DNA from: Candidatus Saccharimonadota bacterium
GTDB lineage: Bacteria > Patescibacteriota > Saccharimonadia > Saccharimonadales > JAGQNJ01
Direction of reading: 5' to 3'
Length of the DNA: 64,000 nucleotides
Assembly: GCA_036826295.1 (NCBI GenBank)
Contig: DAISWO010000001.1
Coordinates: forward strand, 18,068 to 82,067
Positions 9,482-33,211 of the stretch are shown one piece after another. Positions within the stretch are counted from its first letter, which is position 1; every line of letters starts with the position of its first letter. Position numbers and translations under genes: made by a program. The notes under the pieces were generated by a model. It was not told the DNA's origin and made no database searches. It saw only the letters and a program-made list of their open reading frames with translations.

Positions 9482-9943
9482 CTATTTATCCCCTTTTTTT
9501 AGTTTCAATTTACCTAGTCTCGGCATAAAACTACTCGATGCACCCTCTAATCCTAACACCTTCAAAGCCCCCGTCAGCACATATAATTCATCAATACTAC
9601 TCTGCATCGGCGCGCTCTCTTGCTCGACTTTTGAAAAATAATAATCTACTTTTTCGACCAGCCACTTTTCCTGAGCCTCTGTGACTTTGCCAGATTTTAT
9701 CGGCTTGATGTCTGCTGATTCGACAACTTCTAGCGAACGTGCAGATCTATCGCGTTTTTGTAAATGGCCTCTACTAATCAAATTATTAACATGTAGAGCA
9801 ACAGTTGCTACAGATGTGTAATTACAGCCCGTCATGATCTCTCGGTAACTCGGGCTATAGCCATGGGCTTTTATGAATTCATCAATAAACAGTAGCGTTT
9901 GTTGCTGTTTTTTAGTTGGCCTAACTTTCTTTTCTTCACTCAT
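9482..9943 (-). CDS. LexA-type winged-helix DNA-binding protein lacking the S24 peptidase domain
   Basis: N-terminus LTKKQQQTLLFIDEFIKAHGYSPSYREI...TSVATVALHVNNLISRGHL resembles the LexA DNA-binding domain. The C-terminus has no Ser/Lys peptidase motifs. Start overlaps the GtrA stop (ATGA). Confidence 0.55.
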   Translation of the reverse strand: MSEEKKVRPTKKQQQTLLFIDEFIKAHGYSPSYREIMTGCNYTSVATVALHVNNLISRGHLQKRDRSARSLEVVESADIKPIKSGKVTEAQEKWLVEKVDYYFSKVEQESAPMQSSIDELYVLTGALKVLGLEGASSSFMPRLGKLKLKKGDK

Positions 9944-10386
9944 GCGTGTGCTCTACTTACTTTATGTTCTCCACCAAAAACCCAGTATTTAAACCAAAGG
10001 TAATTCCAACCATAGAAAAATCCTGCCGACACAAATTGACCAATATATGGCGATAAGCCAAAGCTATCTTTCAAAATCCTGATAATCAAATAATCAATAA
10101 CAAAATTCCCTATGGTTAAGAAAAAATAGCGTTCGGTCACAATCGTTAATTTTTTGTGTTTGCGATGATCGCGAAATACCCATGACCGCTCAAGTATAAA
10201 GTTGACTGTTATTCCGGTAATATTGGCGATCAATTTTGCCCACCACAGACTAAGCCCTAGCACTTGATCGCAAACTGCAAACATCGCATATCCTGACCAA
10301 AACCACGCTCCGCCGGTAATAGAATAAGTAATTAGTCTATTGATCTCCGATTTAATCGATTTCATTTTTTGCTTGCTGATAGCCAT
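9940..10386 (-). CDS. GtrA-family small membrane protein (polyprenyl-P-sugar translocation-associated)
   Basis: About 150 aa with four TM helices and the typical pattern RLITYSITGGAWFWSGYAMF...GITVNFILERSWVF. Confidence 0.75.
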   Translation of the reverse strand: MAISKQKMKSIKSEINRLITYSITGGAWFWSGYAMFAVCDQVLGLSLWWAKLIANITGITVNFILERSWVFRDHRKHKKLTIVTERYFFLTIGNFVIDYLIIRILKDSFGLSPYIGQFVSAGFFYGWNYLWFKYWVFGGEHKVSRAHA

Positions 10387-10388
10387 AA

Positions 10389-11732
10389 CTATTTTGATTT
10401 TATTATACGCGGTTTATGCGCTGCGCGCTCAGAAAGCGCAATGCCCGCCAACCCCCACCACAACAACGACAACGTATCATCCATCCAGCCATGAGAGACC
10501 ATATTAATAACCGTAATTCCACAAAGTGACGCAAACAAAATTAACGCCAAAGTGTCGTTGCGTTTTTTATAAAGATTCATCGCTACAAAGATATTGATGG
10601 CAATTAGCGTTATCAAACCAAAAATACCAACTTCCTGAGCGATTTGTATATAGTAATTCTCAGAAATTTTAGCAGGTCTATCATTTCTTGCCGAAGCGGG
10701 ACCCGCGCTACCGGCGCCCTGCCCTAGCGGATGCCGGTACACATCCTTAAGGCCAGCAACTATTCCGGACTGGCGATTTTCGTTCGAGCTAACGGCCGAG
10801 CGAGATTTTTCATCAGAATGAAAGATCGTGTTTTGAATAAAGTCATTATTCTGTCCGATATATACTAAACCTAAAAATGAAAGCATCCCAAATGAGACGC
10901 CGTAGAGTAGCAACGTCCTTGAACGTTTATTCGTTAGTGACAAAAAGCCCACTACACCCAAGCTAACAACAGTCCCAAGCCATGCACTACGAGAAAAACT
11001 AAAGAACATAACGAAGATGCTTAAACAAAATAGGCTCAGTAGATATATTTGTTTGCTTGGATTTCTAGCTTTTGACCAAAGCGCTATGGTTGCAGTTAGG
11101 ATAAGCGTCAAATAGGCTCCTAATGGATTAGGCCCACGAAGCGTAGACTGCAACCTAATGTATGCTTCTTTACTGTCTACCGTGTGAATCGCCGGTATTG
11201 TGTCCTTTGAGTACCCAAAATTAGTTAAAAAATCATTTGGTAAAACAATTTTTTGCATAAGCCCAAACACGGTTACAATCATTGCGGGCCCTAGTAACGC
11301 GTATGCCCAGTATTTTTTTAGCAGTTTTGTTTTGCTAGAAATAATCAGCACCACATAAAAAAATGCTAGATAACGTAGATTGGCCAGCAACCCATAAATC
11401 GCCGCCTCAGAATTAACTAAATCCGCCCTATATCCCGCAATAGTTCGTAGAAGTGTAATCAGTAGATATAGTAATGTAAGTCTAAAAATAACCGAGCCAA
11501 GCAAACGCTTCTGAAGCCCTTTGTCTATTATCAATACATACATCGAATAAAGGAATAAAATGCATATTAAAATCTCTTTCCATATTCTAAAAACGTCAAT
11601 ATGGCCGTAGACAGATCCAGCCCATGTAGTAATAAGTGCATGAAATGGCAATACCGTAAACACAAACAGGCAGATCCACCCCATATATTCAGTAAGTCTA
11701 TCTGTTGATTTTACCAATGGTTTGATGCTCAT
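10389..11732 (-). CDS. O-antigen ligase/polymerase-like membrane protein (Wzy_C family)
   Basis: Polytopic membrane protein with a large loop carrying HPLGQGAGSAG...ENYYIQIAQEVGIFGL (Wzy_C H-x-lG-G-G and HN-Y-l-q-like motifs). The ORF track extends to 11816 and would overlap the divergent gene by 60 nt; I prefer the internal ATG (MSIKPL...). Confidence 0.6.
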   Translation of the reverse strand: MSIKPLVKSTDRLTEYMGWICLFVFTVLPFHALITTWAGSVYGHIDVFRIWKEILICILFLYSMYVLIIDKGLQKRLLGSVIFRLTLLYLLITLLRTIAGYRADLVNSEAAIYGLLANLRYLAFFYVVLIISSKTKLLKKYWAYALLGPAMIVTVFGLMQKIVLPNDFLTNFGYSKDTIPAIHTVDSKEAYIRLQSTLRGPNPLGAYLTLILTATIALWSKARNPSKQIYLLSLFCLSIFVMFFSFSRSAWLGTVVSLGVVGFLSLTNKRSRTLLLYGVSFGMLSFLGLVYIGQNNDFIQNTIFHSDEKSRSAVSSNENRQSGIVAGLKDVYRHPLGQGAGSAGPASARNDRPAKISENYYIQIAQEVGIFGLITLIAINIFVAMNLYKKRNDTLALILFASLCGITVINMVSHGWMDDTLSLLWWGLAGIALSERAAHKPRIIKSK

Positions 11733-11755
11733 AGATGATATGATTAATAGTATAT

Positions 11756-13192
11756 ATGAAGAACAACGCTTCGTTCCTGTATGGTTTATTTTTAATAATC
11801 GCCGACGTGGTCTCACTTATCTCAGCATTTGTACTAGCTTTTATTTTTAGAGTATCTTTAACAGATAAGCCCATTATTAATCCAGTTCCATCTAGAACTT
11901 ATTTTGGAATACTAATAATCCTAATACCCTTTTGGGTAATTATTTTTGCACTAATAGGCCTATACACCAGGAATATTTACGAGAACCGTTTTAGCGAGCT
12001 AGGCAGACTTTTTGTAGGTAGCACCATTGGCACGCTATTTGTCGTTGGAGTAGATTTTTTTGGCAGCCAGCCAATCTTTCCAGCGAAGTTAGTGCCCGTT
12101 TACGGCTTTTTGTTAACCTTCACCATTTTAGTGATAATGCGAAACCTAGTTAGGTTGGTTAGAAGAATACTGTTTTCGTACAACAAAGGGATTAGTAATG
12201 TACTAATCGTTGGTCATAACGAAGCAACTAACGAATTAGTCGACTGGTTGTCTGATCCAAAAAAATCTGGTTACAAGATAGTTGGAATTGTTGGCGAAGA
12301 TAAAAACACAAGTTATCCACCCGAAGTAAAAACATATAAAGATTTCAATAGCGCTACCAAATCTATTGGAGCAAACAATATTCACAGCATCATGCAAACA
12401 GAACTATACAAAGATTCCGAAAACAACAATGAGGTTCTTACATTCGCACAAAATAATCATATAGCTTATAGATTTATCCCCGGTAATTCTGAGCTGTTTG
12501 TAGGTAATATGGACGTAGAACTATTCCAATCATCCATTCCGATGATCGCCATCCATCAAACCGCCTTGATTGGCTGGGGACGAATAGCCAAAAGAATATT
12601 TGATCTGTTAGTATCGTTTATTTTTATAATTCTTTTGTCGCCAATTTATTTACTCTGCGCTCTAGCAATCTTTATTTTTGATCCGGGCTCCGTAATTTTT
12701 AAACAAAAACGTGTGACTAGGTATAATACAAAATTTACGATATACAAATTTCGTACTCACAAAAAGAAATTTAGCGGGTTATCGCCCGAACAAGCTTTTA
12801 AGAAAATGGGCAAGCCAGAGCTTGCTATTAAATACAGGGAGAACGGCGATCAGTTAGATCACGATCCTCGGGTGACCAAAGTCGGGCGTTTCTTGCGCAG
12901 TACCAGTCTTGACGAATTACCTCAGCTATTCAATGTCTTAAAAGGTGATATTAGTCTTGTCGGACCACGTGCTCTTGTGCCTGAAGAGATTGAAGAGGCC
13001 AAAGCTAAAAACAACATTGTCAGTGTCAAATCTGGCATCACAGGGTTTGCTCAAATTTCCGGACGAAAGGACATTCCGCCAGAAGAACGACGCAAGCTAG
13101 ATCTTTATTACGTTCAAAATTGGAGCTTTTGGTTAGACATCGTTATCCTGATAAAAACACTGCGAGTTTTGATTAACGTCCGGAGCTCCTAG
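11756..13192 (+). CDS. polyprenyl-phosphate hexose-1-phosphate transferase (WbaP-like initiating glycosyltransferase)
   Basis: N-terminal TM block, central CoA-binding-like domain and a C-terminal bacterial sugar transferase domain (PGSVIFKQKRV...LDELPQLFNVLKGDISLVGPRA). Confidence 0.85.
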   Translation: MKNNASFLYGLFLIIADVVSLISAFVLAFIFRVSLTDKPIINPVPSRTYFGILIILIPFWVIIFALIGLYTRNIYENRFSELGRLFVGSTIGTLFVVGVDFFGSQPIFPAKLVPVYGFLLTFTILVIMRNLVRLVRRILFSYNKGISNVLIVGHNEATNELVDWLSDPKKSGYKIVGIVGEDKNTSYPPEVKTYKDFNSATKSIGANNIHSIMQTELYKDSENNNEVLTFAQNNHIAYRFIPGNSELFVGNMDVELFQSSIPMIAIHQTALIGWGRIAKRIFDLLVSFIFIILLSPIYLLCALAIFIFDPGSVIFKQKRVTRYNTKFTIYKFRTHKKKFSGLSPEQAFKKMGKPELAIKYRENGDQLDHDPRVTKVGRFLRSTSLDELPQLFNVLKGDISLVGPRALVPEEIEEAKAKNNIVSVKSGITGFAQISGRKDIPPEERRKLDLYYVQNWSFWLDIVILIKTLRVLINVRSS

Positions 13193-13193
13193 T

Positions 13194-14294
13194 TTGAAAG
13201 TCGCTATTGTCCACGATTGGTTTTTAGAGGGCGGTGCTGAAAAAGTAGTCCTCGAGCTACACCACATGTATCCCGAGGCGCCCATTTATACGTCCTACTG
13301 CTCGCCCGCGTGGCGAGAAAAATTAGACAATACTGTCATCACTGGCTATCTACAACATTGGCCATTCTCAAAATTGCGCAAGTTTATCCCCCTGCTACGT
13401 CAACACTGGTTTGAGAATCTAGACTTTTCTGATTACGACCTAGTCATTAGTAGCTCGGGCGCCGAAGCAAAAGGCATAAAAGTACCAAAAAGTGTCATGC
13501 ATATTAACTATTGTCATGCCCCCACCCACTATTATTGGAACCGCTACTATGAGTACATAAAGAGCCCGGGGTTCGGCGTCTTCAATCCCCTTGCACGACT
13601 TGGGCTCAAGGTATTACTAAACCCTATTCGCAAATGGGATCTTAAGGCAGCCCAGCGACCCGACTATATGATAGCTAACTCAACTTTTACCTGTAACCAG
13701 ATAAAAAAGTATTACCACCGTGATTCGACCGTCATCCACCCACCAGTCGAGATAGGTAAATTCTTGCTCTCAGCTAACGGCTCACAGCTCTCAGCTAGAA
13801 ACGGTTTTATAATCACTGGCCGGCATGTTCCCTACAAACGATTTGATCTCGCCATCGAGGCCTGCAATCAACTCCAGCTACCCTTGAAGGTTTTAGGCAC
13901 TGGCCCAGAAACTAAAAAGCTTAAACGTCTGGCTGGACCGACTATTGATTTCAAAGGATATGTCTCTGACCAAGAAATTGTTACCCTTCTGCAATCTGCC
14001 GAAGCTTTCATCTTCCCCGGCCTTGACGACTTTGGCATCGCTCCCGTCGCCGCTATGGCCGCCGGTACACCAGTAATCGCCTATAAAGATGGTGGCTCGC
14101 TAGATTATATTGTCGAAGGTAAGACAGGACTATTCTTTAACAAACAAACCAGCTCGTCACTCGAAACAGCTCTACAAAATTTTAAAAAACATATTTTTAA
14201 CTCAGAACATATCAAAAATGAAGCGAAAGAATATGACCCTGTAATATTCAGACAAAAAATGCATGATTATATTGCTAAAGCTAGGAGGAGTTAA
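13194..14294 (+). CDS. GT4-family glycosyltransferase
   Basis: TTG start. N-terminus KVAIVHDWFLEGGAEKV and a C-terminal GT-B donor-binding region (FPGLDDFGIAPVAAMAAGTPVIA). Confidence 0.75.
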   Translation: MKVAIVHDWFLEGGAEKVVLELHHMYPEAPIYTSYCSPAWREKLDNTVITGYLQHWPFSKLRKFIPLLRQHWFENLDFSDYDLVISSSGAEAKGIKVPKSVMHINYCHAPTHYYWNRYYEYIKSPGFGVFNPLARLGLKVLLNPIRKWDLKAAQRPDYMIANSTFTCNQIKKYYHRDSTVIHPPVEIGKFLLSANGSQLSARNGFIITGRHVPYKRFDLAIEACNQLQLPLKVLGTGPETKKLKRLAGPTIDFKGYVSDQEIVTLLQSAEAFIFPGLDDFGIAPVAAMAAGTPVIAYKDGGSLDYIVEGKTGLFFNKQTSSSLETALQNFKKHIFNSEHIKNEAKEYDPVIFRQKMHDYIAKARRS

Positions 14295-14296
14295 TT

Positions 14297-16120
14297 ATGT
14301 GCGGAATCGTAGGCTACGTTGGTAATAAAGACGCACTTAGTCCGGTCCTTGATGGACTCGAAGCCCTAGAATACAGAGGTTATGATTCTGCCGGCGTAGC
14401 TATAATGCGCGATGGCAACATATCCTGTACTAAGCAAATTGGTGGTGTAGCAAATGTCGAAAAATTATTAAAAAATGAAGGTGAGTCAACTACTGCCATT
14501 GGTCACACGCGTTGGGCCACACACGGTGAACCTTCAGTGGCTAACGCTCACCCGCACTACAACAGCGCAAAGACTATATTTATTGTTCATAACGGCATTA
14601 TCGAAAACCATCAAGAGCTACGGGATAAACTAACTGCCAAGGGTTATACTTTTAGCACACAAACCGACACCGAAGTAATTCCTCATCTCATTGATTATCA
14701 TCTAAAAAAAGCTAATTCATTTGAGGCCGCCTTTTCGTCCGCCATCGCTGAGCTAAGAGGCGCATACGCTATTGTTGCTTTGTTCAAAGATGAACCCAAT
14801 ACTCTTTTTGCTGCACGTCTATCCAGCCCCCTAGTTATTGGTGTGGGCGACAACGAATATTATATTGCTTCGGACGCTTCCGCTATCATAGACAAAACCA
14901 AAAAAGTCGTTTATTTAGACGATTACGATATTGCTAAAATTACCCCTACTAATTTAGCTATAAATAATACTCGATCTCACCACGCCGAGGTTCGCCAAGA
15001 ACAAGTACTTGATTATGATACCGAGACAGCTAAACTTGGAAATTTTCCACATTTTATGCTGAAGGAAATATTTGATACACCGCAGACTCTGCAGGCGGCT
15101 ACCCGTGGCCGGATCAGGCCTAAAACCAACCAAGTCCAGCTAGGCGGGCTATTAAACGTTAAGGAGCAGCTACAATTCGTCGATCGCATTGTGATAGTAG
15201 CTTGTGGAACCTCCTATTATGCCGGCATGGTAGGTGAATATTTAATTGAAGAATTGTCTGGCATCCCGGTCGAAGTTCAGCTAGCATCAGAGTTTAAATA
15301 TCGCCACGAACCCTTCTCGCGCGGTACGGCTGTTTTAGCTATTTCACAATCTGGTGAAACGGCCGACACCATTGCAGCACTTAAGAAAGTTGAATCTTAT
15401 GGTGTATTACGTCTGGGGATCGTTAATGTTGTTGGCTCGACTATTGCTCGTATGACCGACGCCGGTGTCTACTGTCATGCTGGGCCAGAGCTATCTGTCG
15501 CTTCTACCAAAGCCTTTGTCGCACAAGTCACAGTACTAATAGAGATCGCCCTATTTCTTGGCAAAGAACGGACAAAAAACTTCAAACCCCTTTTGCACGA
15601 ACTTGCCAACCTAGATAAAAAAATCAAAAAAGTTTTAGATCAGGCTGAGAAGATCCAAGATATCGCTACCAAATACGCTAGCTACAAGAACTTTCTATAC
15701 ATTGGTCGTGGCTATGATTATCCCTGCGCAATGGAGGGAGCCCTAAAGCTAAAAGAGCTTTCCTATATCCACGCCGAAGGCTGTGCTGCCGGAGAGATGA
15801 AGCATGGACCGCTGGCGATGATTGACAAACATTTTCCCACTTTGGCCATAGCTACCGATTCAGAAATTATAGAAAAAACCCATTCTAACATCCAAGAAAT
15901 TCAAGCACGAAAAGGCAAAGTCATCGCGATAGGTATAGAGGGCGATACTCGATTAGAGCAACTAGCTGACGACTGCATATTTATACCTCGATCATTAACC
16001 CAAACACAACCCATATTAATAGCCGTGGTTGTTCAGCTATTTGCTTACTACATTTCAGTTAATAAAGGTCTAAACGTCGATAGGCCTCGAAACCTAGCAA
16101 AATCAGTTACAGTAGAATAG
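14297..16120 (+). CDS. glmS: glutamine--fructose-6-phosphate aminotransferase
   Basis: MCGIVGYVG Ntn-amidotransferase start and two SIS domains. AGGAGG RBS upstream. Confidence 0.95.
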   Translation: MCGIVGYVGNKDALSPVLDGLEALEYRGYDSAGVAIMRDGNISCTKQIGGVANVEKLLKNEGESTTAIGHTRWATHGEPSVANAHPHYNSAKTIFIVHNGIIENHQELRDKLTAKGYTFSTQTDTEVIPHLIDYHLKKANSFEAAFSSAIAELRGAYAIVALFKDEPNTLFAARLSSPLVIGVGDNEYYIASDASAIIDKTKKVVYLDDYDIAKITPTNLAINNTRSHHAEVRQEQVLDYDTETAKLGNFPHFMLKEIFDTPQTLQAATRGRIRPKTNQVQLGGLLNVKEQLQFVDRIVIVACGTSYYAGMVGEYLIEELSGIPVEVQLASEFKYRHEPFSRGTAVLAISQSGETADTIAALKKVESYGVLRLGIVNVVGSTIARMTDAGVYCHAGPELSVASTKAFVAQVTVLIEIALFLGKERTKNFKPLLHELANLDKKIKKVLDQAEKIQDIATKYASYKNFLYIGRGYDYPCAMEGALKLKELSYIHAEGCAAGEMKHGPLAMIDKHFPTLAIATDSEIIEKTHSNIQEIQARKGKVIAIGIEGDTRLEQLADDCIFIPRSLTQTQPILIAVVVQLFAYYISVNKGLNVDRPRNLAKSVTVE

Positions 16121-16124
16121 ATAC

Positions 16125-18480
<2,356 letters not shown>

Positions 18481-18486
18481 CTAAAC

Positions 18487-19065
18487 ATGGCAAAGGTAGC
18501 TACGACAGAATTTACTTCGCACAAAACTAACATTCCTGGATTGATTTTTTTTGATGTTACTAGCGTCGGTGATGATCGTGGCTGGTTTCAAGAAAAGTTT
18601 CATAAAGACAAGCTAGTAGAGGGCGGAATTCCTGAGGATTTTCAGGTAGTTCAGAACAGCCTGTCGTACAACAAGCAAAAAGGCGTTGTCCGAGGTTTGC
18701 ATGCAGAGCCGTGGGATAAATATATATCCGTCGTCAAAGGGAAAGTTTTTGCTGCATACGTAGATCTGCGAGAGGGCTCAAATTTTGGAAAGGTAGAAAC
18801 AATAGAAATTACACCAAACATAGCTGTATTTTTACCTGAAGGTGTTGCTAATTCTTTCCAAACCCTCGAGGATGAAACTTATTATCTCTACAGTGTAAAT
18901 AAGCACTGGACTGCTGACGATTACGACAAATATATGTTCGTGAACCTGGGCGATCCAGATCTAAATATTCAATGGCCTATCGCGCTGGAAGACTCTGTCA
19001 TGTCTGATCGGGATAAAAATCATCCACAGCTAAAGGATATAATTCCTATGAAAGTTGGTAACTAA
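18487..19065 (+). CDS. rfbC: dTDP-4-dehydrorhamnose 3,5-epimerase
   Basis: RmlC cupin signature (GLIFFDVTSVGDDRGWFQE...VRGLHAEPW). Confidence 0.9.
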   Translation: MAKVATTEFTSHKTNIPGLIFFDVTSVGDDRGWFQEKFHKDKLVEGGIPEDFQVVQNSLSYNKQKGVVRGLHAEPWDKYISVVKGKVFAAYVDLREGSNFGKVETIEITPNIAVFLPEGVANSFQTLEDETYYLYSVNKHWTADDYDKYMFVNLGDPDLNIQWPIALEDSVMSDRDKNHPQLKDIIPMKVGN

Positions 19066-22284: not shown

Positions 22285-22360
22285 TTTTGTGAATATTACT
22301 ATACCTGATTTATAGATTCTTTACTGATATAATATAACCCTATACGAAAGGAGATCCGCG

Positions 22361-24668: not shown

Positions 24669-24673
24669 TTTAG

Positions 24674-24985: not shown

Positions 24986-24993
24986 ACGAAGTA

Positions 24994-26205
24994 TTATACT
25001 ATTGCGTTAGTGTTTTTTAGTGATTCGTTTTTTACAGATTCAATATTATTTTTAATTGAAGACTTGATCTTTTCATTATCCTTCTTAGTCATCTCATATA
25101 TCTTTCCGAGACTCTTTTCGTTAAGATTCTTCAGATCAATTGCGTATTTCTCTAGGCCAAATTGAGACAAAATCTCTTTATATTTATGACTCCAGCCAAT
25201 TACCCCAACCGGAACACCCACAGACAAGCTAGCAATCATGGCATGGAATCTAGACACCAGACAAGCCGATACGGTCGAGATGATATAGCGTTGAGCTTGG
25301 GCCGAAATCTCTTGGTTGAAAAATACTGTTTTATTTTTATCGTCGACTAGCTCAAAAATCTTTTTACATAACGGCAAGTCATTGTTATGAGGTTTTTCGG
25401 ACCCCTCTCTGGCTGCATGAGCCATAATGATAAATTTTTGATTTTCTAAATTTTTAGCATTAAGAAAATCAGCGATAACGCCCGCATAATCTACTCCCAA
25501 CTTATCACATTTTTTTTCAACCACTCGGCTGGGGCAAATTACTAAATAATTTTTATTCAACGAAGGTGAAAGTTTTGCTTTAGTTAATATTTTTTGGGCT
25601 ACTTTTTTCTCTTGTTCAGAAATTTTTAGCAAGAATGCGTAGTCTGATGCTGGTGTAACATTCGTTAGATTTAGTACTTGTAAATATTTTTTGGTTTGAG
25701 ATCCCCTGGCCATAATGTGGGTAATTCTAGGAAGAAGTAATTTTGAAAAAAATCTATTAATCGGGTTATTAAAGGGTCCCATCGCTTGGGCACATTTAAC
25801 AATCTTTTTATTCATCAGTATGGGTGGCAGGATACTGGCAACATTAAATATCAAAAACTTTTCTCTGCCATCAACAAAGCTTATTCCCGGTTCGTCTAAG
25901 TAAACATCACAGTCATAGAGCGCTTTAATATGATTGTTCTTTCTAATTACCGGCCTAAGTGGGATTAATATCTTATGTAGTAGAGCTAGTGGATTTACCA
26001 CCAATGCTAGATAAACCGGCTTTGTTGATAAAACACTAAGGTTCTTATATGTATTCTGCTTTCGATCTTTTTCAGGGTACAAACTAAACAGGGTAAACTC
26101 TGCTTTCTGATCCTTTGCAGTAATTGATTGAACGGACGCTTCCAGCATCGCAGCAGCACCCTTGTTACCATAAAATGCAGCCGAACCACCTATTACATAC
26201 TTCAC
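24994..26205 (-). CDS. polysaccharide pyruvyl transferase family protein
   Basis: N-terminus IGGSAAFYGNKGAAAML resembles the pyruvyl-transferase start (G-x-x-G-N-x-G-D/A-x-A). GT-B-like length of about 400 aa. Confidence 0.65.
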   Translation of the reverse strand: MKYVIGGSAAFYGNKGAAAMLEASVQSITAKDQKAEFTLFSLYPEKDRKQNTYKNLSVLSTKPVYLALVVNPLALLHKILIPLRPVIRKNNHIKALYDCDVYLDEPGISFVDGREKFLIFNVASILPPILMNKKIVKCAQAMGPFNNPINRFFSKLLLPRITHIMARGSQTKKYLQVLNLTNVTPASDYAFLLKISEQEKKVAQKILTKAKLSPSLNKNYLVICPSRVVEKKCDKLGVDYAGVIADFLNAKNLENQKFIIMAHAAREGSEKPHNNDLPLCKKIFELVDDKNKTVFFNQEISAQAQRYIISTVSACLVSRFHAMIASLSVGVPVGVIGWSHKYKEILSQFGLEKYAIDLKNLNEKSLGKIYEMTKKDNEKIKSSIKNNIESVKNESLKNTNAIV

Positions 26206-27122
26206 TTGCTCGCTCCTTTAGTTCTTAAAATTAAATAGAGAATCGCCAGGATCCCATCCGCAACTGTGGCATATAGTCTGGCTAGCAACGCCAATGCGAT
26301 GGCCTCCTCTGTAGAGAAGTAATTGCTTGCAAAAGCTACAATTACAGCCTCTCTAACCCCTAGCCCGCTCGGAACAAAAATGGCCATTATTCCAATAATT
26401 CCAGCCAACGTATATATCGAGCCTAATCCAATATACATATCAGGCGTGACTGGCAGAATCGATGCAGCTATAAACACAAACGCCACTGCCGTGATTATCC
26501 TAGGGATTAAAAACTTAACCACAAAAACTACTAGAGTCTTCGAGTCAAAGAAATATTCTTGACCAATTGTTTGATTACGGACTTTTTTGAGTACCGTGTT
26601 GAATATCCTATAAAAAGCTTTTTTACTTAGTAGTGGGAGGGCTAAAAGTCCCAACAAAAGTGGTGAAAACATCGACACGTTACTCGACACATCGCTAAAG
26701 AACAACCCCAGAACGGGCAGTGACAATATCAAAGAAGCCAATAACAAGAATATGTTCTCGTACATAAACGAAATCGACAGAACCTTTTTGCTGTGGCCAT
26801 TCTTAGTTCCCCAAGCGACTTTATTAACATAAGAACCAGCTTGGCCAGGGATATATTTTAATAACCATGACGAAGTATGCACCGCCAATGCTTCTTTTTT
26901 ACTAATAACTATGTTCAATCTCTTAAGTATCGCTCCCCACAATAATCCCGAATACAACACCGCCACAACTAACATGACTAGCCCAAAAAACGAATATATA
27001 TTGACCGAAAAATCTATGGTTTGTAAATTTGTCCAGTTGCGAACTAGCGCTCTACCAAAAAAGAATGTTGCTAGCAAAATCACTAACCAAGCTAAGACAG
27101 TTCTTATTCCAGTTTTTTTCAT
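26202..27122 (-). CDS. UPF0104 / lysylphosphatidylglycerol-synthase-TM-like (flippase-like) membrane protein
   Basis: About 300 aa with eight TM helices, no soluble domain and an arginine-rich N-terminus. A typical partner of GT2 enzymes in glycan loci; the family call is from memory. Confidence 0.5.
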   Translation of the reverse strand: MKKTGIRTVLAWLVILLATFFFGRALVRNWTNLQTIDFSVNIYSFFGLVMLVVAVLYSGLLWGAILKRLNIVISKKEALAVHTSSWLLKYIPGQAGSYVNKVAWGTKNGHSKKVLSISFMYENIFLLLASLILSLPVLGLFFSDVSSNVSMFSPLLLGLLALPLLSKKAFYRIFNTVLKKVRNQTIGQEYFFDSKTLVVFVVKFLIPRIITAVAFVFIAASILPVTPDMYIGLGSIYTLAGIIGIMAIFVPSGLGVREAVIVAFASNYFSTEEAIALALLARLYATVADGILAILYLILRTKGASK

Positions 27123-28207
27123 TTACTTATCTTATTGTAACTTCTTATCACGTCCAAAGATTTTTTCTGCGAGTATGGCACTTCCGCTTTCGGATCTGCA
27201 TAGCCAATCGCGATTAACATTATTGGCCGTTCATCAAATCTCAAGCCCAATAATTTTTGCATTTTAGCTTCCAGTGGTTCAAAATCTGGCCAGTTAATCA
27301 TGCAGGTAGAAATCCCCTTTGTTTCTAGTGCAAAAGCAAAGCTCATAGCTGAGAGCGAAGAGTCGACGTAGATAGCGTGTCGATCACGCGTACTAAAGTA
27401 TGAATCTAGCTTACCTACTAAAACCGCAATCGCCGGGACGTTATCGGCATAACCGGTCGTTCCAAATGGTGTATTCGCCACAATTTTTACCAGCTTTGGG
27501 TCATCGAATAATCTATACTCATATGGCAAGCGATTGCAGGCTGTTGGAGATTGTCGTGCAACCAACATCGCTTCATCAATATCATTTCGGCTAACTTTCT
27601 TCTTTAGAAACCAGCGAGCTGACCGTCTATACATACTTAGGGATAATAGCTGGTCGTAGCTTGGAAGGTCTTTTGGCTTCACTCTTACAAAAGGCGCGAT
27701 ATCTTGCGAGTCTGGTTTGTAGTCTTGTTTTTCAAACAGAGTTTGAGCTTTTACGATCTGTGGTGTTGGCTTCTTGATTGCCTCAAAATAGCGTTTTAGT
27801 ACATTGTTTGCCCAGTGCAGTTCAGACTCGTCATATGTAGACGGGTCTGCTTTGTGTTGATTAACTGATACTGCATAGACTTCGACTGTCTCTAGAATAT
27901 AGCCCTGGGAAAAAGTAGGTCTACGAGGTCGCATAATTAAAGCTTTTTCTAGACGGTGAATGTTCCGGCGCAACGCTATCCGAGATTTAGAATTTGCTTG
28001 CTTTAGATTAATATAGTAGTTTCTCTTGCCTTTTAATACCGCCCTCTGCTCACGCATAAACGGAAAAAAGAGTAACCAGTGAAACGGAATGCTAAGCAGG
28101 TACGTAAAGCTGAATATTCTTGCAACCGTCAAGTTAACCGTTCGCATCAATTTACGAACTATCTTTACGCCAAGAATTGTTTGTAGTAATTTCTTAATTT
28201 TCTTCAT
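27119..28207 (-). CDS. nitroreductase-family flavoprotein with N-terminal membrane/linker region
   Basis: C-terminal nitroreductase fold (RQSPTACNRLPYEYRLF...PAIAVLVGK...AIYVDSSLSAMSFAFALETKGISTCMIN). N-terminal hydrophobic segment. 4-nt overlap with both neighbours. Confidence 0.65.
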   Translation of the reverse strand: MKKIKKLLQTILGVKIVRKLMRTVNLTVARIFSFTYLLSIPFHWLLFFPFMREQRAVLKGKRNYYINLKQANSKSRIALRRNIHRLEKALIMRPRRPTFSQGYILETVEVYAVSVNQHKADPSTYDESELHWANNVLKRYFEAIKKPTPQIVKAQTLFEKQDYKPDSQDIAPFVRVKPKDLPSYDQLLSLSMYRRSARWFLKKKVSRNDIDEAMLVARQSPTACNRLPYEYRLFDDPKLVKIVANTPFGTTGYADNVPAIAVLVGKLDSYFSTRDRHAIYVDSSLSAMSFAFALETKGISTCMINWPDFEPLEAKMQKLLGLRFDERPIMLIAIGYADPKAEVPYSQKKSLDVIRSYNKISK

Positions 28208-28296
28208 GGTGTTCCAAATCCCACACTAGGGGCGATCTATATAATCTTATCAAACTTACTAATTATTTACATTCATTATGTCTATAATGGAACTGG

Positions 28297-30279
28297 ATGA
28301 ATATCGAGCAATCATTCAGGCGACTACGGAAATCAGTCTGGTTCTTTCCTTTTTTACTGTTTCTGTTATTTACGATTTTTGTATCGTTTAAAATTAGTGG
28401 TAGTTCAATCGGAATCTACGAGAGAATACTTCCAAGTCAGGGCGAAAGATCTTCAGTATTATACGGACGGCCGCAATCAATTCGCTCAGATGAATGGCTG
28501 GTATGGACTCAGCTAACTATTTCCCAGTCCGAGAATGGTTTTCCGCGATTTAACGAAGACCTAGGCACTGGCCGTGACTTAGCTCTTCACTTTGAAATAC
28601 CATCAAAAGATTGGTCTGCAGTATTTAAGCCTCATAATTGGGCATTCTTTATTCTGCCCTTAGAATATGCGTTCGCGTTCAAGTGGTGGTTCTTGGCATA
28701 CATTCTAATAATTGGTGCGTATTTATTCGCTACGAAACTTCTGGGTGGCAAATTCTTACTGTCCGCAATTATTAGTGTGGCTTTTGCATTAAGCCCGTTC
28801 ATACTCTGGTGGTACCAAACCCCTGTTTTAGGGCTGATTGGAATAGGATTCTTAATCATTCTGGCTTTCATACATATTATTAATGGCGCTCAACTCAAAC
28901 AAATTAACAATGTTGCTTTATCTAAATCAGTATCAATACTTTGGTTAGCATTTCTATTAATTTGGTTTAGCTTTATATTGTACCCACCGTTTCAAATATC
29001 GATCGCAATTGTTGTTACTTTTTACTGTTTTGGATATCTTATTCAGTATTTCACAAAAACGAAGACTACTTCGAAAACTATACTAGTAAAGTTAGCCCCA
29101 GTTTTTATTGCTTTACTTCTAACCATTTTAGCTGGGGTTATATTTATATATAGTCACCAAGATGCAATAAGTAAGATGAATGGTTCAGTTTACCCTGGAG
29201 ATAGAAATGTTGTTAGCGGTGGTCAAACACCTCTCACGACGTTGGGGGGGTTCTTGATGCCTCTTGTTCAAAGTGATTTCCGTAGCGCCAACTATTATTC
29301 TAACCAGAGCGAGGTCTCCAACTTTATAATTAGCGCGCCAATACTTTTGATACCATTAATTTGGATTTCTTTTATGGAGTATAAAAAGCGTCGAAAGATT
29401 GATTGGCGACTAATAACGATGATTATATGTACAACCCTAATTTTAGCTAGGATGTACATCCCTTTCGGGGATAGACTGTATAGACTACTGCTTTTAGATA
29501 AGGTTCCTCATGGGAGATTACTTATAGCTCTTGGTTTCTTGGGATTTTTGATGATAGTTCATTTCGTCGAAAAATCATACGAGCTTAGATTAGCCAAAAA
29601 ACAACATACTAAGTTTGCTCTCCTATATACTTCGACGGTTTTTCTCATGTTGTTATACGTAGGTTTTGAGGTAAAGAAATCTTACCCCTTATTCCTGCAA
29701 CATAACTATGAACTACTCATACTCGTAATGATAATGTCGGTATTTATTTTTTGCCTATCAATCGGCAAGCACCTTGTTGCCGCTTTAGCAGTACTAGCTA
29801 TCTCGTTATTTAGTAGCTTCCGAGCAATGCCGCTACAATCTGGATTAGGGCCATTGTACAAATCCAAAATTGTAGATCAAATTAATTCAAAATCCAACGA
29901 CCGAGATTCTTGGTTAGTCATTGGAAGCATTTACTACGAACATATACCGCTGCTCGCAAACAATGATTTACTTGGTGGAGTTCAACTTTATCCCGACAAA
30001 GATTACTGGATCAATCTGTTCGGTACGAACAACGAGTATAACTTCAACAGAAAAGCACACATTAATTTTATTTCTTCAAAAGATGCTGGCGAGATATCAC
30101 TTCCTCAGGGAAACCTAATTGTCATTAATATAAAAGATTGCTCTTCAAAGGTTTTAGAATCCGCCGATTATGTATTATCTGATCACAAATTAGTTCTGCC
30201 CTGCCTGACAGAAATTGAGATACCAGAAGACACTAAAACAACTCTTTACATGTACAAAAACACTAATTCAGTCAATTAA
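28297..30279 (+). CDS. large polytopic membrane protein, possible GT-C-like glycosyltransferase
   Basis: 660 aa with more than 12 TM helices. First loop has SDEW after TM1. C-terminal soluble domain. No firm family assignment. Confidence 0.45.
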   Translation: MNIEQSFRRLRKSVWFFPFLLFLLFTIFVSFKISGSSIGIYERILPSQGERSSVLYGRPQSIRSDEWLVWTQLTISQSENGFPRFNEDLGTGRDLALHFEIPSKDWSAVFKPHNWAFFILPLEYAFAFKWWFLAYILIIGAYLFATKLLGGKFLLSAIISVAFALSPFILWWYQTPVLGLIGIGFLIILAFIHIINGAQLKQINNVALSKSVSILWLAFLLIWFSFILYPPFQISIAIVVTFYCFGYLIQYFTKTKTTSKTILVKLAPVFIALLLTILAGVIFIYSHQDAISKMNGSVYPGDRNVVSGGQTPLTTLGGFLMPLVQSDFRSANYYSNQSEVSNFIISAPILLIPLIWISFMEYKKRRKIDWRLITMIICTTLILARMYIPFGDRLYRLLLLDKVPHGRLLIALGFLGFLMIVHFVEKSYELRLAKKQHTKFALLYTSTVFLMLLYVGFEVKKSYPLFLQHNYELLILVMIMSVFIFCLSIGKHLVAALAVLAISLFSSFRAMPLQSGLGPLYKSKIVDQINSKSNDRDSWLVIGSIYYEHIPLLANNDLLGGVQLYPDKDYWINLFGTNNEYNFNRKAHINFISSKDAGEISLPQGNLIVINIKDCSSKVLESADYVLSDHKLVLPCLTEIEIPEDTKTTLYMYKNTNSVN

Positions 30280-31707
30280 TCTATTATAAGAAGGACTATA
30301 CCAGTCACTATTGGAGCCTCGTATAAATGTCATAGCTGGTAGGTGTGCCAATATAAGCATAATTGCTATAGTAGTCCATACTATAAAAAATACATTTCTT
30401 TTATTTTCGGGTAATCTTTGGTCGGCTCTCAGAATAATCACCGCTACGATATAAAAAATAAACACCGCAACCGGTATTAGGTATCTGCCTTGATAAGCGA
30501 AACGTTTTCCGTAGTTTAGTAATGTCAGCAAATTAAAAATATAGAGCACTGCAATATACGCAAATACAAGGGTATACAGATAGTATTGATGAAACGCTTT
30601 GAATAACCTTTTTCTCGGTAGTAGGAGCGTACTTACAAAAGCAACCATACTAATCGCAGCCACAAACTCGCTAGCTGTTGTACTCATAATTTTTTTATGT
30701 CCTAGATAGAAGAATAAGTTGTTGTACATGCTGTAGAACCACATACCAGTATGAGTAAACGGATTTTCTTTATTTATAAAACTAATCTTGTTGACGCCAT
30801 TGAAAATATCTTTCTGATCGTAATTTCGAGCATATAAAGCGTTGGTAACACACTCTTCTCTAGAGAATAATTTCACACAACCTGGCTGTACGTTTCCGTA
30901 CTTTATGATATTTAAGCCAAACCGTTCTAGCGCCATAACTGTTCCTAGAGTAGCGAAAAGTATTATTAGAATCGTGCCAATGGAAAATTTAAGATGTTTT
31001 TTTATGTCTGCCTTTAGCAGCGTTTTTCTATATTTTGAAATCAAAAAGTACCCTGCGATCAAAAGCCCCAATCCAACCGTTGGCAGAAAAGTATACTTCG
31101 TCAAACATGTAAATACACCGAAAATATATGACATTAGAAAATCTTGGATACGCCTTTTTTTTACATACCGAATCGAATATAGCAAGAATACCGCGAATAG
31201 TAGATTTGCTAAGTTATCGTAGTTAATCGATGAGGCAAGCCACACAAACATGCCTACAAAAGTAAGCGACATAATCGATAGATTTTTCAAAGCCTCATTG
31301 TCGCTAACCTCGTCCAGACATTTCTTAAGAAAAGCGATAGTTAGTATCGCGAGCACAACACTTTGCATTCGCAACATTAAAACTTGTGTTTCAACATTAC
31401 CAGAAATATTTTTGATTGCCCTCAAACTGAAACTAGACAGGTAATGATAAAGGTAGCTAGCACTTCGGTTCAAAGTTCTGACTTCAGCTATTGAATCTGG
31501 TGATTGCTGACTAATTATGGGTCCAGCAAAAGCTCCTTGGTTAGAATAGTAGTCGATAGCAGAATAATGATAGGCTTCATCAGGGGGTATGCCGAATTTA
31601 ATCGAAAATGAAAAGAATAACGCCTGTACCGCAAACAACGCTACCACTATCCACAGGAAATATTTACTACTAACTAATTTGATTATTTTATTTCGTAAGC
31701 TTTTCAA
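30268..31707 (-). CDS. polytopic membrane protein, putative GT-C-fold glycosyltransferase (DUF2142-like), paralog of 20782-22284
   Basis: Motifs PPDEAYHY and SYLYHYLSSF match the DEYAHY and SYLYSYLLSFP of ORF 20782-22284. More than 10 TM helices. Confidence 0.55.
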   Translation of the reverse strand: MKSLRNKIIKLVSSKYFLWIVVALFAVQALFFSFSIKFGIPPDEAYHYSAIDYYSNQGAFAGPIISQQSPDSIAEVRTLNRSASYLYHYLSSFSLRAIKNISGNVETQVLMLRMQSVVLAILTIAFLKKCLDEVSDNEALKNLSIMSLTFVGMFVWLASSINYDNLANLLFAVFLLYSIRYVKKRRIQDFLMSYIFGVFTCLTKYTFLPTVGLGLLIAGYFLISKYRKTLLKADIKKHLKFSIGTILIILFATLGTVMALERFGLNIIKYGNVQPGCVKLFSREECVTNALYARNYDQKDIFNGVNKISFINKENPFTHTGMWFYSMYNNLFFYLGHKKIMSTTASEFVAAISMVAFVSTLLLPRKRLFKAFHQYYLYTLVFAYIAVLYIFNLLTLLNYGKRFAYQGRYLIPVAVFIFYIVAVIILRADQRLPENKRNVFFIVWTTIAIMLILAHLPAMTFIRGSNSDWYSPSYNRLID

Positions 31708-33211
31708 TGTTTTCTATTATATCCTTATTCTCACCTTTTGCTAATGTCCATAACGACGCAGTAATTAACGCTAATCCAGTCAGAATCGCTACTAGCACAA
31801 TATATAATAACAACCCATTAAAGCCATTTTGGTTTAGCCCCTTAATGATTACGTTATCAACACCGCCCAGTGAAAAATCTTTTTTTACCAGCATCCAAGA
31901 CAGATTAATAATTACCAGGCATATGCCTAAACCAACTACACAAGAAACTAATAGCCCTCTTAGCTTCTTTATGCTAAGTAGCCCATAACACATCAACAGA
32001 CCGACAGGCAATAACGAAGGTATTACATAGCGGACATTCATTGCTCCGTATCCTGTGGCATGAATTATTTGTTGAATCCACAATAGTGCCACCTGAAATG
32101 AGAACATCATAACAACAAATATTTCTTTATTGTTAAGATTCCTGCGTTTTCTAAATGCCCAGACTCCGGCTAATCCAACAGAGCCAACAAAAACAATTAC
32201 CGATAGTTTTTTATTTGAAATTTGTTTACTAAAGTAAACGTCTGCAAACTTCCACGAATCCCCATACAAATTATCGGCTAGTAAAGTCCAGGTTCTAGTG
32301 TTAGAGACTACCGAACCTAGCGGTCTATACTCTCTCCCTTGGGCCTTCACCCAATCTTGAGGACCAGACCTATACCAGTTGCCACTAATTGTCTGATTTC
32401 TATGATAGAACCATCCGATACCGGATAGAACAACTACGACTATGACTATGATCGCGGTCAGACTCTGTTGCAGTCTTTTCCGAAAGTTTTTGTTTGAATG
32501 TAGCCATGTTCCAACTAACACAGCAAAAAGGCTTGGAATCATAGTCGCTAAAAAAGTTGCCCTCGAAGACATTCCAATCAAAGAAACTATCGCGAGCCCT
32601 ACTATTAATCTAGTGTTCGGGCCTTTTAATATGATGAGCCCGGAAAGTGTCATGCTTACTACCGAGGCCAAAAGCACTAGGATATCGTTCATTATTAGAG
32701 ACGATATCTTTATGAATGGCACAATCGAAATAATCAAGGCTGGAAGCGCAACAGCAAACTGAGCCTTCTTTTCTCCCCCAAAGACCCAGCCAGCCCAAGA
32801 AAGAGCAACCACTGATAATAATGCGACTAGTAGAGTTATAAATCTAGCGCTGAAAATAGCTCTGTTAAAGTGTCCTTTACTGAAATTGTAGCCTATAGTC
32901 GGTGCGATTAGAGTGTAGTACAGTGGTGGATGTTGCGATACAAATTGTACGTTCCTGCGGGGAATAAATGGCGCAAGAGTACCTTCCTTAAATTTTGGTA
33001 AGCGACCATTATATACTTGCCAGGCATAATCAATATGTCCAACAGAATCTCCACCTAAATATTTATAAGGTATAGTTGATAAATATAGTCCGCCAATAGA
33101 TACGAGACACAGGATAACTCCACTCAAACCCAATACTACCCTTCTGTCTACATTTTTGATCCAGTCCGTATTACTGATATTACTAATTCTTCGGTGGAGT
33201 CTAAATTTCAT
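31688..33211 (-). CDS. polytopic membrane protein, putative ArnT/PMT-like GT-C glycosyltransferase
   Basis: 507 aa with more than 11 TM helices. The first periplasmic loop (LGGDSVGHIDYAWQVYNGRLP) resembles the aspartate-containing loop of ArnT/PMT_2 enzymes. The family call is tentative. Confidence 0.5.
   Translation of the reverse strand: MKFRLHRRISNISNTDWIKNVDRRVVLGLSGVILCLVSIGGLYLSTIPYKYLGGDSVGHIDYAWQVYNGRLPKFKEGTLAPFIPRRNVQFVSQHPPLYYTLIAPTIGYNFSKGHFNRAIFSARFITLLVALLSVVALSWAGWVFGGEKKAQFAVALPALIISIVPFIKISSLIMNDILVLLASVVSMTLSGLIILKGPNTRLIVGLAIVSLIGMSSRATFLATMIPSLFAVLVGTWLHSNKNFRKRLQQSLTAIIVIVVVVLSGIGWFYHRNQTISGNWYRSGPQDWVKAQGREYRPLGSVVSNTRTWTLLADNLYGDSWKFADVYFSKQISNKKLSVIVFVGSVGLAGVWAFRKRRNLNNKEIFVVMMFSFQVALLWIQQIIHATGYGAMNVRYVIPSLLPVGLLMCYGLLSIKKLRGLLVSCVVGLGICLVIINLSWMLVKKDFSLGGVDNVIIKGLNQNGFNGLLLYIVLVAILTGLALITASLWTLAKGENKDIIENIEKLTK

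Follow-up and report, generated by a model that had tools for sequence, protein, structure and literature searches.

The window analysed here, a stretch of 64,000 nucleotides of contig DAISWO010000001.1 from a Candidatus Saccharimonadota bacterium, encodes four large polytopic membrane proteins (designated A, B, C and D), a family 2 glycosyltransferase (GT2) and a GtrA-family protein. With a probability of roughly 0.7, this region is the extracytoplasmic arm of an envelope glycan supercluster and represents a transmembrane glycosylation system made up of several components, of the type defined previously (PMC8035078, PMC11127046). The original prediction, made from the letters of the sequence, had proposed for positions 9940-33211 an extracytoplasmic glycosylation system driven by polyprenyl-phosphate sugars, with at least three and possibly four glycosyltransferases of the GT-C fold. 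The proposal is supported by structural models that have this fold, by acidic residues that are invariant among homologues, and by a linkage to the GT2 gene that recurs in related loci; all of its open reading frames (ORFs) were recovered at the coordinates it gave. In the following, the two secreted neighbours of the polytopic proteins are designated S1 and S2, and the related loci L001-L170.

Fold and conserved residues of the polytopic proteins

The structure of C was modelled with AF2 from 59 sequences (mean pLDDT 92.3). Comparison of the model with the PDB by Foldseek demonstrated that the best 33 matches are all GT-C enzymes, including Pmt4 (the best match, TM-scores 0.54/0.56), ArnT, DPY19, STT3, AftB, PglB, AglB, ALG9, EmbC, ALG3 and AftA; the first match outside GT-C had a probability of 0.47 and a TM-score of 0.17. 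As judged from its model, C is a GT-C-fold glycosyltransferase. We infer the same fold for A and B from their homology to C and from the match of B to the PMT_2 family. Alignment of the A/B family with the C family by hhalign gave probabilities of 98.1-98.6% (98.6% over 365 columns), in a register that pairs Asp46 with Asp55, His50 with His59, Asp163 with Asp176, and Arg421-Tyr422 with Arg394-Tyr395. A and B are paralogues of each other, as had been claimed, with 25% identity over 444 amino acids (E 4e-30), and the stretches SYLYSYLLSFP of A and SYLYHYLSSF of B are present.

Protein D accounts for the "possibly four" of the original prediction. Its model, obtained with AF2 from 48 sequences (mean pLDDT 92.4), had only GT-C enzymes among the best 12 Foldseek matches in the PDB, namely ArnT (E 1e-4), AftA, STT3, PglB, DPY19 and EmbA/B/C, so that structure prediction, which had been named as a check, gave GT-C folds and not transporters for both C and D. 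On the evidence of its model, D is definitely a GT-C, and it represents a separate family, matching the Pfam domains DUF7657 (304.8 bits, cutoff 26) and DUF7654 (50.5 bits, cutoff 27). Profile-profile comparison of D with A, B and C revealed no relationship (probability 4-12%); D was on this ground rejected as a fourth paralogue of A/B/C, and the cluster therefore contains two unrelated GT-C families. In literature searches, neither DUF7657 nor a connection between Saccharibacteria and GT-C turned up.

Hydropathy analysis gave approximately 9-13 segments and Lys/Arg-rich N-termini for A, B, C and D, in agreement with the helical models of C and D. The acidic motifs that had been quoted for the first loop are all present, i.e. 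VFDEYAHY in A (Asp46, Glu47), PDEAYHY in B (Asp43, Glu44), GGDSVGHIDYAW in C (Asp55, His59, Asp61) and RSDEW in D (Asp65, Glu66), and each is found in a long loop directly after the first transmembrane (TM) helix. Since the N-termini are rich in Lys and Arg, this loop is predicted to be extracytoplasmic by the positive-inside rule; a DxD or modified acidic motif in the first extracytoplasmic loop is the criterion for such enzymes adopted from PMC8035078. Asp46, Glu47 and His50 are invariant in 39 sequences of the A/B family, Asp55 in 59 sequences of the C family, and Arg63, Asp65 and Glu66 in 48 sequences of the D family, and the acidic residues are therefore not there by chance.

The outcome of the family searches that had been suggested was mixed. 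GtrA, GT2 and, for B, PMT_2 (PF13231) were found above their thresholds; a match of A to DUF2142 (PF09913) was absent at the gathering threshold, and A, C and D all stayed below that of PMT_2, A and C being without any Pfam match even at E 10. Certain homologues of A and C do match PMT_2 or PMT. Precomputed assignments to PF09913 exist for 25 of the 120 listed homologues of A, and others carry PMT_2, PMT or GT22, which indicates that A is related to DUF2142 without being a scoring member. No match to the YfhO-type GT-C family (PF09586) was seen among A-D.

Candidate donor synthase, candidate flippases and gene linkage

The GT2 had been described as carrying two C-terminal TM helices, and hydrophobic helices were located at approximately residues 233-251 and 271-289. 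It is the sole GT2 with TM helices in the window; the other GT2s encoded there were rejected as donor synthases, none of them having TM helices or a GacJ-like partner. The closest solved relatives by sequence are the Pyrococcus DPMS (5mlz, E 7e-10) and three ArnC entries. No NCBIfam equivalog cutoff was reached, and the best partial matches, headed by AglJ and followed by Dol-P-hexose transferase, PpgS, PgfS and ArnC, are all polyprenyl-phosphate sugar synthases. These sequence relationships make the GT2 a candidate polyprenyl-phosphate sugar synthase of the DPMS/GtrB/ArnC type. On the opposite strand, convergent with the GT2 gene and 5 nt past its stop codon, lies the gene for a protein of 103 amino acids with two cysteines, which is 59% identical in L001. 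This protein was rejected as a GacJ/DUF2304-type activator, having one TM helix and no DUF2304 match.

A metagenome scan for the A family returned 80 loci, of which 50 had 1.1 kb or more of flanking sequence on each side and were counted. The A-type gene is directly adjacent to a GT2 orthologue in 32 of these 50 loci and to a PF03706 gene in 34, and the complete cassette of PF03706, A-type GT-C and GT2 is found in 27. In the typical layout (e.g. L098 5093-8447 and L123 5025-8459) the PF03706 gene is divergent and the GT2 gene convergent, the latter often overlapping by a few bases. The GT2 orthologues are 55-68% identical to the GT2 of the window, versus 30-44% for their A-type neighbours, and this better conservation of the GT2 fits a conserved donor with diversifying transferases. 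Among GT2 orthologues adjoining GT-Cs, the identity is 55-88%. In L066, from a metagenome-assembled genome (MAG) of the Saccharimonadales, rmlA, ugd, the GT2 gene (69% identity), a C-like and a D-like gene form a single-strand row in which neighbours are 7-42 nt apart. L008 contains orthologues of B (44%) and C, followed by the genes for a nitroreductase, a PF03706 protein and a pyruvyl transferase, with a GT2 orthologue (71%) alongside; the B-C pair is kept in L001 as well as in L008. It is clear that the related loci link the GT2 to every GT-C type, and the co-occurrence with GtrB-like genes that had been put forward as a check was thus found throughout.

The genome scan for the D family likewise returned 80 loci, mostly from Saccharibacteria, including the cultured Nanosynbacter; a few belong to other Patescibacteria or to Actinomycetota (Micromonospora, Cellulomonas, Actinotalea, Pengzhenrongella and Kineosporiaceae). 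At 21 of them, a GT2 of 314-330 amino acids with C-terminal TM helices (two helices in 20 cases) is encoded within 6 kb. Other D loci have a shorter GT2 of 227-259 amino acids, followed in nine of the ten checked by a protein of 114-132 amino acids with three TM helices; this arrangement, which also holds in Cellulomonas and Pengzhenrongella, corresponds to that of GacI/GacJ, responsible for the synthesis of Und-P-GlcNAc (PMC8035078). In five D loci, a GtrA-like gene is divergent from D. The order in most saccharibacterial D loci is D-(S1)-S2-GT2-double GT2-Wzt-Wzm, from which the window departs simply by having B and C placed after D and before S1. As a separate observation, L007 harbours two tandem DUF7657 GT-C paralogues (8001-12027) together with a GacI/GacJ-type pair (451-1531) of a 237-residue GT2 and a small DUF2304-like membrane protein. 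The Actinomycetota, which also carry the DUF7657/DUF7654 family, are the host phylum of the cultured Saccharibacteria.

S1 and S2, which the original prediction had regarded as Ser/Thr-rich candidate acceptors, are indeed richer in Ser and Thr than any other protein of the window (24% and 18%; the median is 12%). They do not appear to be incidental acceptors, being a conserved partner pair of D across phyla: the S1-S2 pair adjoins D also in Cellulomonas, Actinotalea and an Actinomycetes MAG, and at the actinomycetotal loci S2 is 40-46% identical versus 25-30% for D. Loci with S1-S2 beside DUF7657 genes include L007, L016, L029, L073, L074, L081 and L088. Conservation is confined to the C-terminal domain in S1 and to the first ~300 residues in S2, where Gln155-Lys156-Glu157, CPDTAxCD, YTPYxPN, YGNxNF and several cysteines are invariant. 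From its sequence, this N-terminal domain resembles an extracellular enzyme or a binding domain with disulfide bonds; for S2, Pfam at E 10 and PDB sequence and profile searches gave chance matches only. One S2 homologue carries lectin-like C-terminal repeats. S1 and S2 look more like partners of D than simple acceptors, a role in which they could nevertheless serve.

Two proteins of the window are candidate flippases, as judged from their families. The GtrA-family protein, whose assignment had been made earlier and was upheld by Pfam, is a candidate for flipping the polyprenyl-phosphate sugar. The second candidate, which the original prediction had not flagged, is the PF03706 protein, encoded 1.5 kb from the GT2 gene. 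Of the two, PF03706 accompanies the A-type GT-C more consistently in the genomes of relatives. All eight A-adjacent PF03706 homologues that were checked pass the threshold with 53-77 bits, in agreement with the precomputed Pfam assignments for L089 and L090. The order nitroreductase-PF03706-pyruvyl transferase of the window is kept in L001, L008 and L096; a nitroreductase-like protein is a puzzling member of a glycan cluster. Neither PMC8035078 nor PMC11127046 names PF03706 as a class of flippase.

The UDP-glucose dehydrogenase gene (ugd) ends 2 nt before the GT2 gene. The two genes also adjoin in L001, L002, L066, L133 and L154, and ugd is a divergent neighbour in L089, so that the donor could conceivably be a uronic acid. 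Polyprenyl-phosphate glucuronate is kept as a low-confidence idea only, since ugd is missing from the vicinity of most related GT2-GT-C cassettes. The GxGxxG motif of the dehydrogenase (IIGAGYVGL) is encoded upstream of the first canonical start, GTG at 22460. An AAGGAG (22348-22353) precedes ATA at 22361 (or ATT at 22376), with TGATATAAT at 22325-22333, and a non-canonical ATA/ATT codon probably serves as the start of this gene. In L008 (8935-11348), GT2 and ugd are separated by genes for a CysQ-like phosphatase and a sulfate adenylyltransferase/APS kinase, an arrangement that hints at sulfated glycans in some Saccharibacteria.

Proposed mechanism and alternative readings

The proposed process would begin at the cytoplasmic face, where the GT2 would charge polyprenyl phosphate with a sugar taken from a nucleotide sugar. 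The lipid-linked sugar would then be flipped outward by the GtrA protein, the PF03706 protein, or both, and the four GT-Cs would use it outside the membrane; the Asp or Asp-Glu that is invariant where loop 1 begins would be catalytic, as in other GT-Cs. The acceptors would be one or more rhamnose-containing glycopolymers made by two routes, one comprising an initiating hexose-1-phosphate transferase (PGT), a GT4 and the Wzy_C protein, with the carrier recycled by UppP, and the other comprising GT2s and the Wzm/Wzt transporter and including an amino-sugar branch as well as a methyltransferase. A single conserved donor synthase would supply several faster-evolving GT-Cs, which would set the linkage or the acceptor specificity. 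The original prediction had left the acceptor between a wall polymer, an S-layer and proteins, including those of a type IV secretion system (T4SS); here the gene context favours a wall or envelope glycopolymer over the T4SS proteins.

Several points weigh against this reading. The components are close together in one supercluster and do not form one operon. The GtrA gene is 13 kb from the GT2 gene and on the other strand, its conserved neighbours (L001, L002) are PGT and GT4 genes and not the GT2 gene, and the PF03706 protein of the window belongs to another subfamily than those flanking A-type genes elsewhere. The A-family loci L004, L103 and L104 have PGT, GT4 and Wzy_C genes and lack a GT2 or a candidate flippase in the vicinity. 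Searching the PDB with sequences and profiles of A/B, C and D gave nothing even at E 10, so the fold assignment was taken from the models; these cover C and D directly and A/B through homology, and the Foldseek TM-scores are modest (0.39-0.56). The non-essentiality of the D-like gene, the neighbouring GT2 and the GtrA-like genes of Southlakia epibionticum, as determined by transposon sequencing (Tn-seq), limits the importance that can be claimed for the system and is silent on mechanism. What was observed in this analysis consists only of family and fold assignments, conserved residues and gene linkage across genomes; the donor lipid and its sugar, the direction of transfer, the flippase and the acceptor are what we infer.

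The four GT-Cs might instead synthesize a main chain, extending or branching a polymer step by step outside the membrane with one polyprenyl-phosphate monosaccharide as donor, as is the case for mycobacterial arabinan and mannan. One conserved donor synthase for four GT-Cs would suit this role, as would the structural matches to AftA, AftB, EmbA/B/C and PimE, the presence of the D family also in Actinomycetota, and the A-type cassettes, many of which are isolated from any other glycan genes. We consider it unlikely, since two complete cytoplasmic routes already explain the backbone and no sequence membership in the Emb/Aft/Mpt families was found with Pfam, although sequence cannot separate a polymerase from a decorating enzyme.

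Protein O-glycosylation, in which the GT-Cs would act on Ser/Thr residues of S1, S2, pilins or T4SS components, is quite unlikely. It is true that Pmt4 is the best structural match of C, that B belongs to PMT_2 and that an Asp-Glu pair is present in loop 1 of A, B and D; however, PMT_2 also spans ArnT-like lipid and glycan transferases, no protein of the window matches PF02366 or MIR, and no other PMT-specific domain was found. The Ser/Thr-rich linker of S1, the overall composition of S1 and S2 and the fact that the pair always travels with D would fit an acceptor role, but the conserved parts of both proteins are folded, Cys-rich domains and not the linker. Pilin O-glycosylation has been predicted in Saccharibacteria by a published study, whereas the genes that surround the GT-Cs here are those of polysaccharide assembly.

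It is very unlikely that some of the GT-Cs, especially D with its extracytoplasmic domain and S1/S2, move an entire lipid-linked oligo- or polysaccharide to another polymer or the wall, in the manner proposed for WpsJ of the Lactococcus dual-chain pathway or of an oligosaccharyltransferase. D is positioned between both assembly modules and, in relatives, beside GT2 genes of the ABC-transporter-dependent type, and the structural matches include STT3, PglB and AglB; moreover, DUF2142 proteins of S. thermophilus rgp loci have been proposed to attach rhamnan side chains (PMC9746298). On the other hand, the D-family genes are consistently linked to polyprenyl-phosphate sugar synthases of the monosaccharide type (GtrB- or GacI/GacJ-type), and the Wzy_C protein is at hand for the role of ligase or polymerase. 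No LCP ligase is encoded in the window according to Pfam and NCBIfam, but an LCP gene adjoins the A-type cassette in L090, from which it follows that ligation is probably LCP-dependent and encoded elsewhere. Finally, the idea that the polytopic proteins are transporters or other non-glycosyltransferases with coincidental motifs, which could draw on the missing significant sequence match to solved GT-Cs and on A and C having no Pfam match of their own, can be practically discarded, as transporters appear far down the Foldseek lists (probability <0.5, TM-score <0.2), the motifs are invariant and the linkage to polyprenyl-phosphate sugar synthases is systematic.

Composition of the supercluster and relation to known systems

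The envelope glycan genes form a block from approximately 8675 to 46414 (a supercluster of ~37 kb), extending past the limits of the original prediction (Table 1), and a relative at ~70% identity carries the same cluster. Proteins of the window are 100% identical to hypothetical proteins of a Candidatus Saccharibacteria (TM7) MAG. The G+C content of the window is ~40%, and no tRNA genes or Rfam matches were detected in it. The genes for Wzy_C, GtrA, the LexA-like winged-helix protein and UppP make up a tight minus-strand operon (8675-11816; gaps of 2, -4 and 0 nt), uppP abutting its upstream gene. The PGT-GT4 operon is divergent from it, and the PGT-GT4 pair is kept in relatives. As listed, the Wzy_C ORF overlaps the 5' end of the PGT gene by 61 nt, and for this reason its true start is probably Met29 at 11732; the homologue in L001 has 447 amino acids. 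The LexA-like protein, which is without the S24 peptidase domain, is a candidate regulator of the cluster. Its gene is kept at the same position in L001, L002, L004, L103, L104, L107 and L113, including distant Saccharibacteria. The end of the C gene is overlapped by the B gene by 20 nt. Downstream of S2, the order is double GT2, GT2, DegT aminotransferase, NeuD/VioB-type acetyltransferase, methyltransferase, GT2-like protein, Wzt-like ATPase, Wzm-like permease, GT2 and GT4. A promoter scan was uninformative, because promoter-like sites occurred only at the level expected by chance; terminator-like sites were commoner than in shuffled sequences.

Table 1. Features of the envelope glycan supercluster, with coordinates in the window
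Feature	Coordinates	Strand	Basis and remarks
UppP/BacA undecaprenyl-diphosphate phosphatase	8675..9481	-	PF02673, 279.5 bits; lipid-carrier recycling; last gene of operon
LexA-like winged-helix protein, 153 aa, without peptidase domain	9482..9943	-	PF01726, E 2.7e-11
GtrA-family small membrane protein, 148 aa	9940..10386	-	PF04138, 72.7 bits (cutoff 26.1)
Wzy_C-family polytopic protein, polymerase or ligase type	10389..11816	-	PF04932, 53.7 bits
Initiating polyprenyl-phosphate hexose-1-phosphate transferase (PGT, WbaP/WcaJ type)	11756..13192	+	PF02397, 203.8 bits; TIGR03025, 358 bits (cutoff 295.6)
GT4 glycosyltransferase	13194..14294	+	PF00534/PF13439; proposed to add second sugar to lipid-linked primer
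GlmS, GlmM, RmlB, RmlC, RmlD, RmlA (precursor supply)	14297..20773	+	Pfam; UDP-GlcNAc route and dTDP-L-rhamnose
GT-C A, 500 aa, PMT_2/DUF2142-related	20782..22284	-	Paralogy with B; homology to C; D46-E47-H50 in loop 1
UDP-glucose 6-dehydrogenase family (TuaD/AglM-like)	22361..23716	+	TIGR03026, 332.8 bits (cutoff 189.8)
GT2 with two C-terminal TM helices	23718..24668	+	PF00535, E 9e-21
103-aa protein, one N-terminal TM helix	24674..24985	-	No family match
Polysaccharide pyruvyl transferase (CsaB/WcaK-like)	24994..26205	-	PF04230, 89.2 bits
PF03706 (MprF flippase-domain-like) membrane protein	26202..27122	-	PF03706, 57.8 bits (cutoff 33.4)
Nitroreductase-family protein	27119..28207	-	PF00881; first gene of operon with PF03706 and pyruvyl transferase
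GT-C D, 660 aa, DUF7657 membrane domain and DUF7654 extracytoplasmic C-terminal domain	28297..30279	+	
GT-C B, 479 aa, PMT_2 family	30268..31707	-	PF13231, 33.7 bits (cutoff 26.1); D43-E44
GT-C C, 507 aa	31688..33211	-	Invariant D55, with H59, D61, Y62; AF2 model
S1, membrane-anchored, acidic Ser/Thr-rich linker and conserved C-terminal domain	33294..33881	+	Start may be ATG at 33306
S2, secreted protein	33886..35628	+	Conserved Cys-rich N-terminal domain (~300 aa); variable C-terminal half
ABC-transporter-dependent glycan module	35645..46414		Pfam and NCBIfam

Outside the block, an acidic non-membrane protein of 529 amino acids (6803-8392) has a C-terminal Cys cluster with CxxC, its sole match being a weak one below the cutoff in NCBIfam. 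At 49293-64000 of the window, the genes dnaA-dnaN-recF (49.3-53.1 kb) lie beside a T4SS-like cluster that encodes a TraG/VirB4-like ATPase (59049-60977), an amidase/GDSL protein and a VanY-domain protein. The essential T4SS genes of Southlakia epibionticum have low locus-tag numbers, SEML1_0006-0019 (PMC10633639).

The kind of system proposed here is already known, so the value of the locus lies in its candidates and their context and not in a new principle. Mycobacteria and corynebacteria possess DPA-, DPM- and PpgS-dependent arrays of GT-Cs (Emb, Aft, Mpt, PimE and Rv3779), together with the GtrA-family protein Rv3789. The present cluster resembles these arrays in the proposed use of one lipid donor by many GT-Cs, in its GtrA-family candidate and in the similarity of C and D to AftA, AftB, Emb and PimE, but no family membership was found, no DPPR synthase (UbiA-type) is encoded in the window, and cytoplasmic routes already supply the backbones. 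In Rhizobium, RgtA-D and RgtF are ArnT-like GT-Cs whose acceptors are the lipopolysaccharide (LPS) core and lipid A. There, one synthase (RgtE, a bactoprenyl-phosphate GalA synthase; PMC7663294) feeds several ArnT-like GT-Cs, as proposed for the window, where ugd adjoins the GT2 gene and a uronic-acid donor is likewise conceivable. Unlike in Rhizobium, LPS acceptors are absent in a monoderm, and ugd is adjacent in a minority of the related loci. GT-Cs of Saccharibacteria have been labelled 'RgtA/B/C/D-like' in a published annotation table (PMC10633639).

Multi-component systems of Gram-positive bacteria include CsdAB/CsdCD/CsdEF with the single GtrA-type protein CflA of L. lactis, GtlA/GtcA/GtlB of Listeria, CsbB/GtcA/YfhO of B. 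subtilis and GacI/GacJ/GacK/GacL of S. pyogenes (PMC8035078). The window shares with them a membrane-linked GT2 for a C55-P-sugar, a GtrA-family flippase candidate, several GT-Cs that would decorate wall polymers and the context of a rhamnose polysaccharide, and pairs of the GacI/GacJ type adjoin D-family genes in its relatives. In contrast to the Lactococcus pairs, with one GT-A per GT-C, a single synthase appears to serve four GT-Cs here; in contrast to B. subtilis, none of A-D belongs to YfhO, D being a DUF7657 protein, and PF03706 is an extra flippase candidate. The organism, moreover, is a monoderm epibiont of the candidate phyla radiation. The O-antigen glucosylation system GtrA-GtrB-Gtr(type) of Shigella and Salmonella phages (PMC11127046) has the same three roles, filled by a GtrA-family protein, a GtrB-like GT2 with two TM helices and a GT-C, but the window contains neither a compact gtrABC operon nor a prophage context, none of its proteins was found to belong by sequence to the Gtr(type) families, and the acceptor cannot be an O antigen.

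For archaea, a triad of the MprF-flippase-like arCOG00899, the PMT/STT3-like arCOG00563 and an AglD-like GT2 was predicted in 2015 (PMC5898192). The combination of PF03706, PMT_2-like GT-C and DPMS-like GT2 in relatives of the window is alike, and the top NCBIfam match of the GT2 is the archaeal AglJ. The archaeal system is itself a prediction only, and in the window, unlike there, PF03706 is part of the nitroreductase/pyruvyl transferase operon and GtrA is also present. The DUF2142 proteins of S. thermophilus (PMC9746298) are comparable in that homologues of A carry PF09913, in the rhamnose-polysaccharide cluster with GT2 neighbours, and in being proposed GT-Cs acting on rhamnan; A, however, remains below every Pfam threshold, and the streptococcal role, too, is only proposed.

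In Southlakia epibionticum, a structure-based table lists several GT-C-fold proteins, GtrA-like proteins and one PF03706 protein, which are not discussed in the main text (PMC10633639). Matched by family, the Tn-seq calls of that study are GD/ES/ES for SEML1_0400 (a PMT_2 GT-C), NE/ES/ES for SEML1_0241 (PF03706) and NE/ES/ES for RfbA, while the other GT-Cs, GtrA-like proteins and GT2 (SEML1_0705, 0876, 0877, 0880, 0882 and 0883) are NE. The D-like protein of that organism, of 656 amino acids, is non-essential (PMC10633639).

What is new here is the GT-C assignment of DUF7657/DUF7654, the S1-S2 partners common to the Actinomycetota, and the widespread PF03706-GT-C-GT2 cassette. A bolder proposal, for which the chances are low, is that PF03706, and not GtrA, Wzx, MATE or SMR, is the default lipid-sugar flippase of these systems in Saccharibacteria, with the cassette of PF03706, A-type GT-C and GT2 as the bacterial counterpart of the archaeal triad, and that the DUF7657 GT-C is a dedicated extracytoplasmic machine together with S1 and S2, the latter with a new enzyme-like domain. 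If this were true, the cassette may make an indispensable component of the envelope, SEML1_0241 and SEML1_0400 being scored essential, and the DUF7657-S1-S2 trio would be common to an epibiont and its host phylum, as would fit an exchange of genes and similar glycans on the two surfaces.

The surface chemistry of Saccharibacteria, which live attached to Actinobacteria, is essentially uncharacterised; a recent study calls saccharibacterial glycosylation "unexplored". The locus offers a parts list for it, with predicted rhamnose, uronic acid, N-acetylated 4-amino-6-deoxyhexose, and pyruvyl and methyl groups, two predicted cytoplasmic assembly routes, and an extracytoplasmic arm that would consist of one donor synthase and four GT-Cs. 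The DUF7657/DUF7654 family gains a fold and a likely role, along with a conserved secreted partner pair, and the candidates are testable in two genetically tractable Saccharibacteria.

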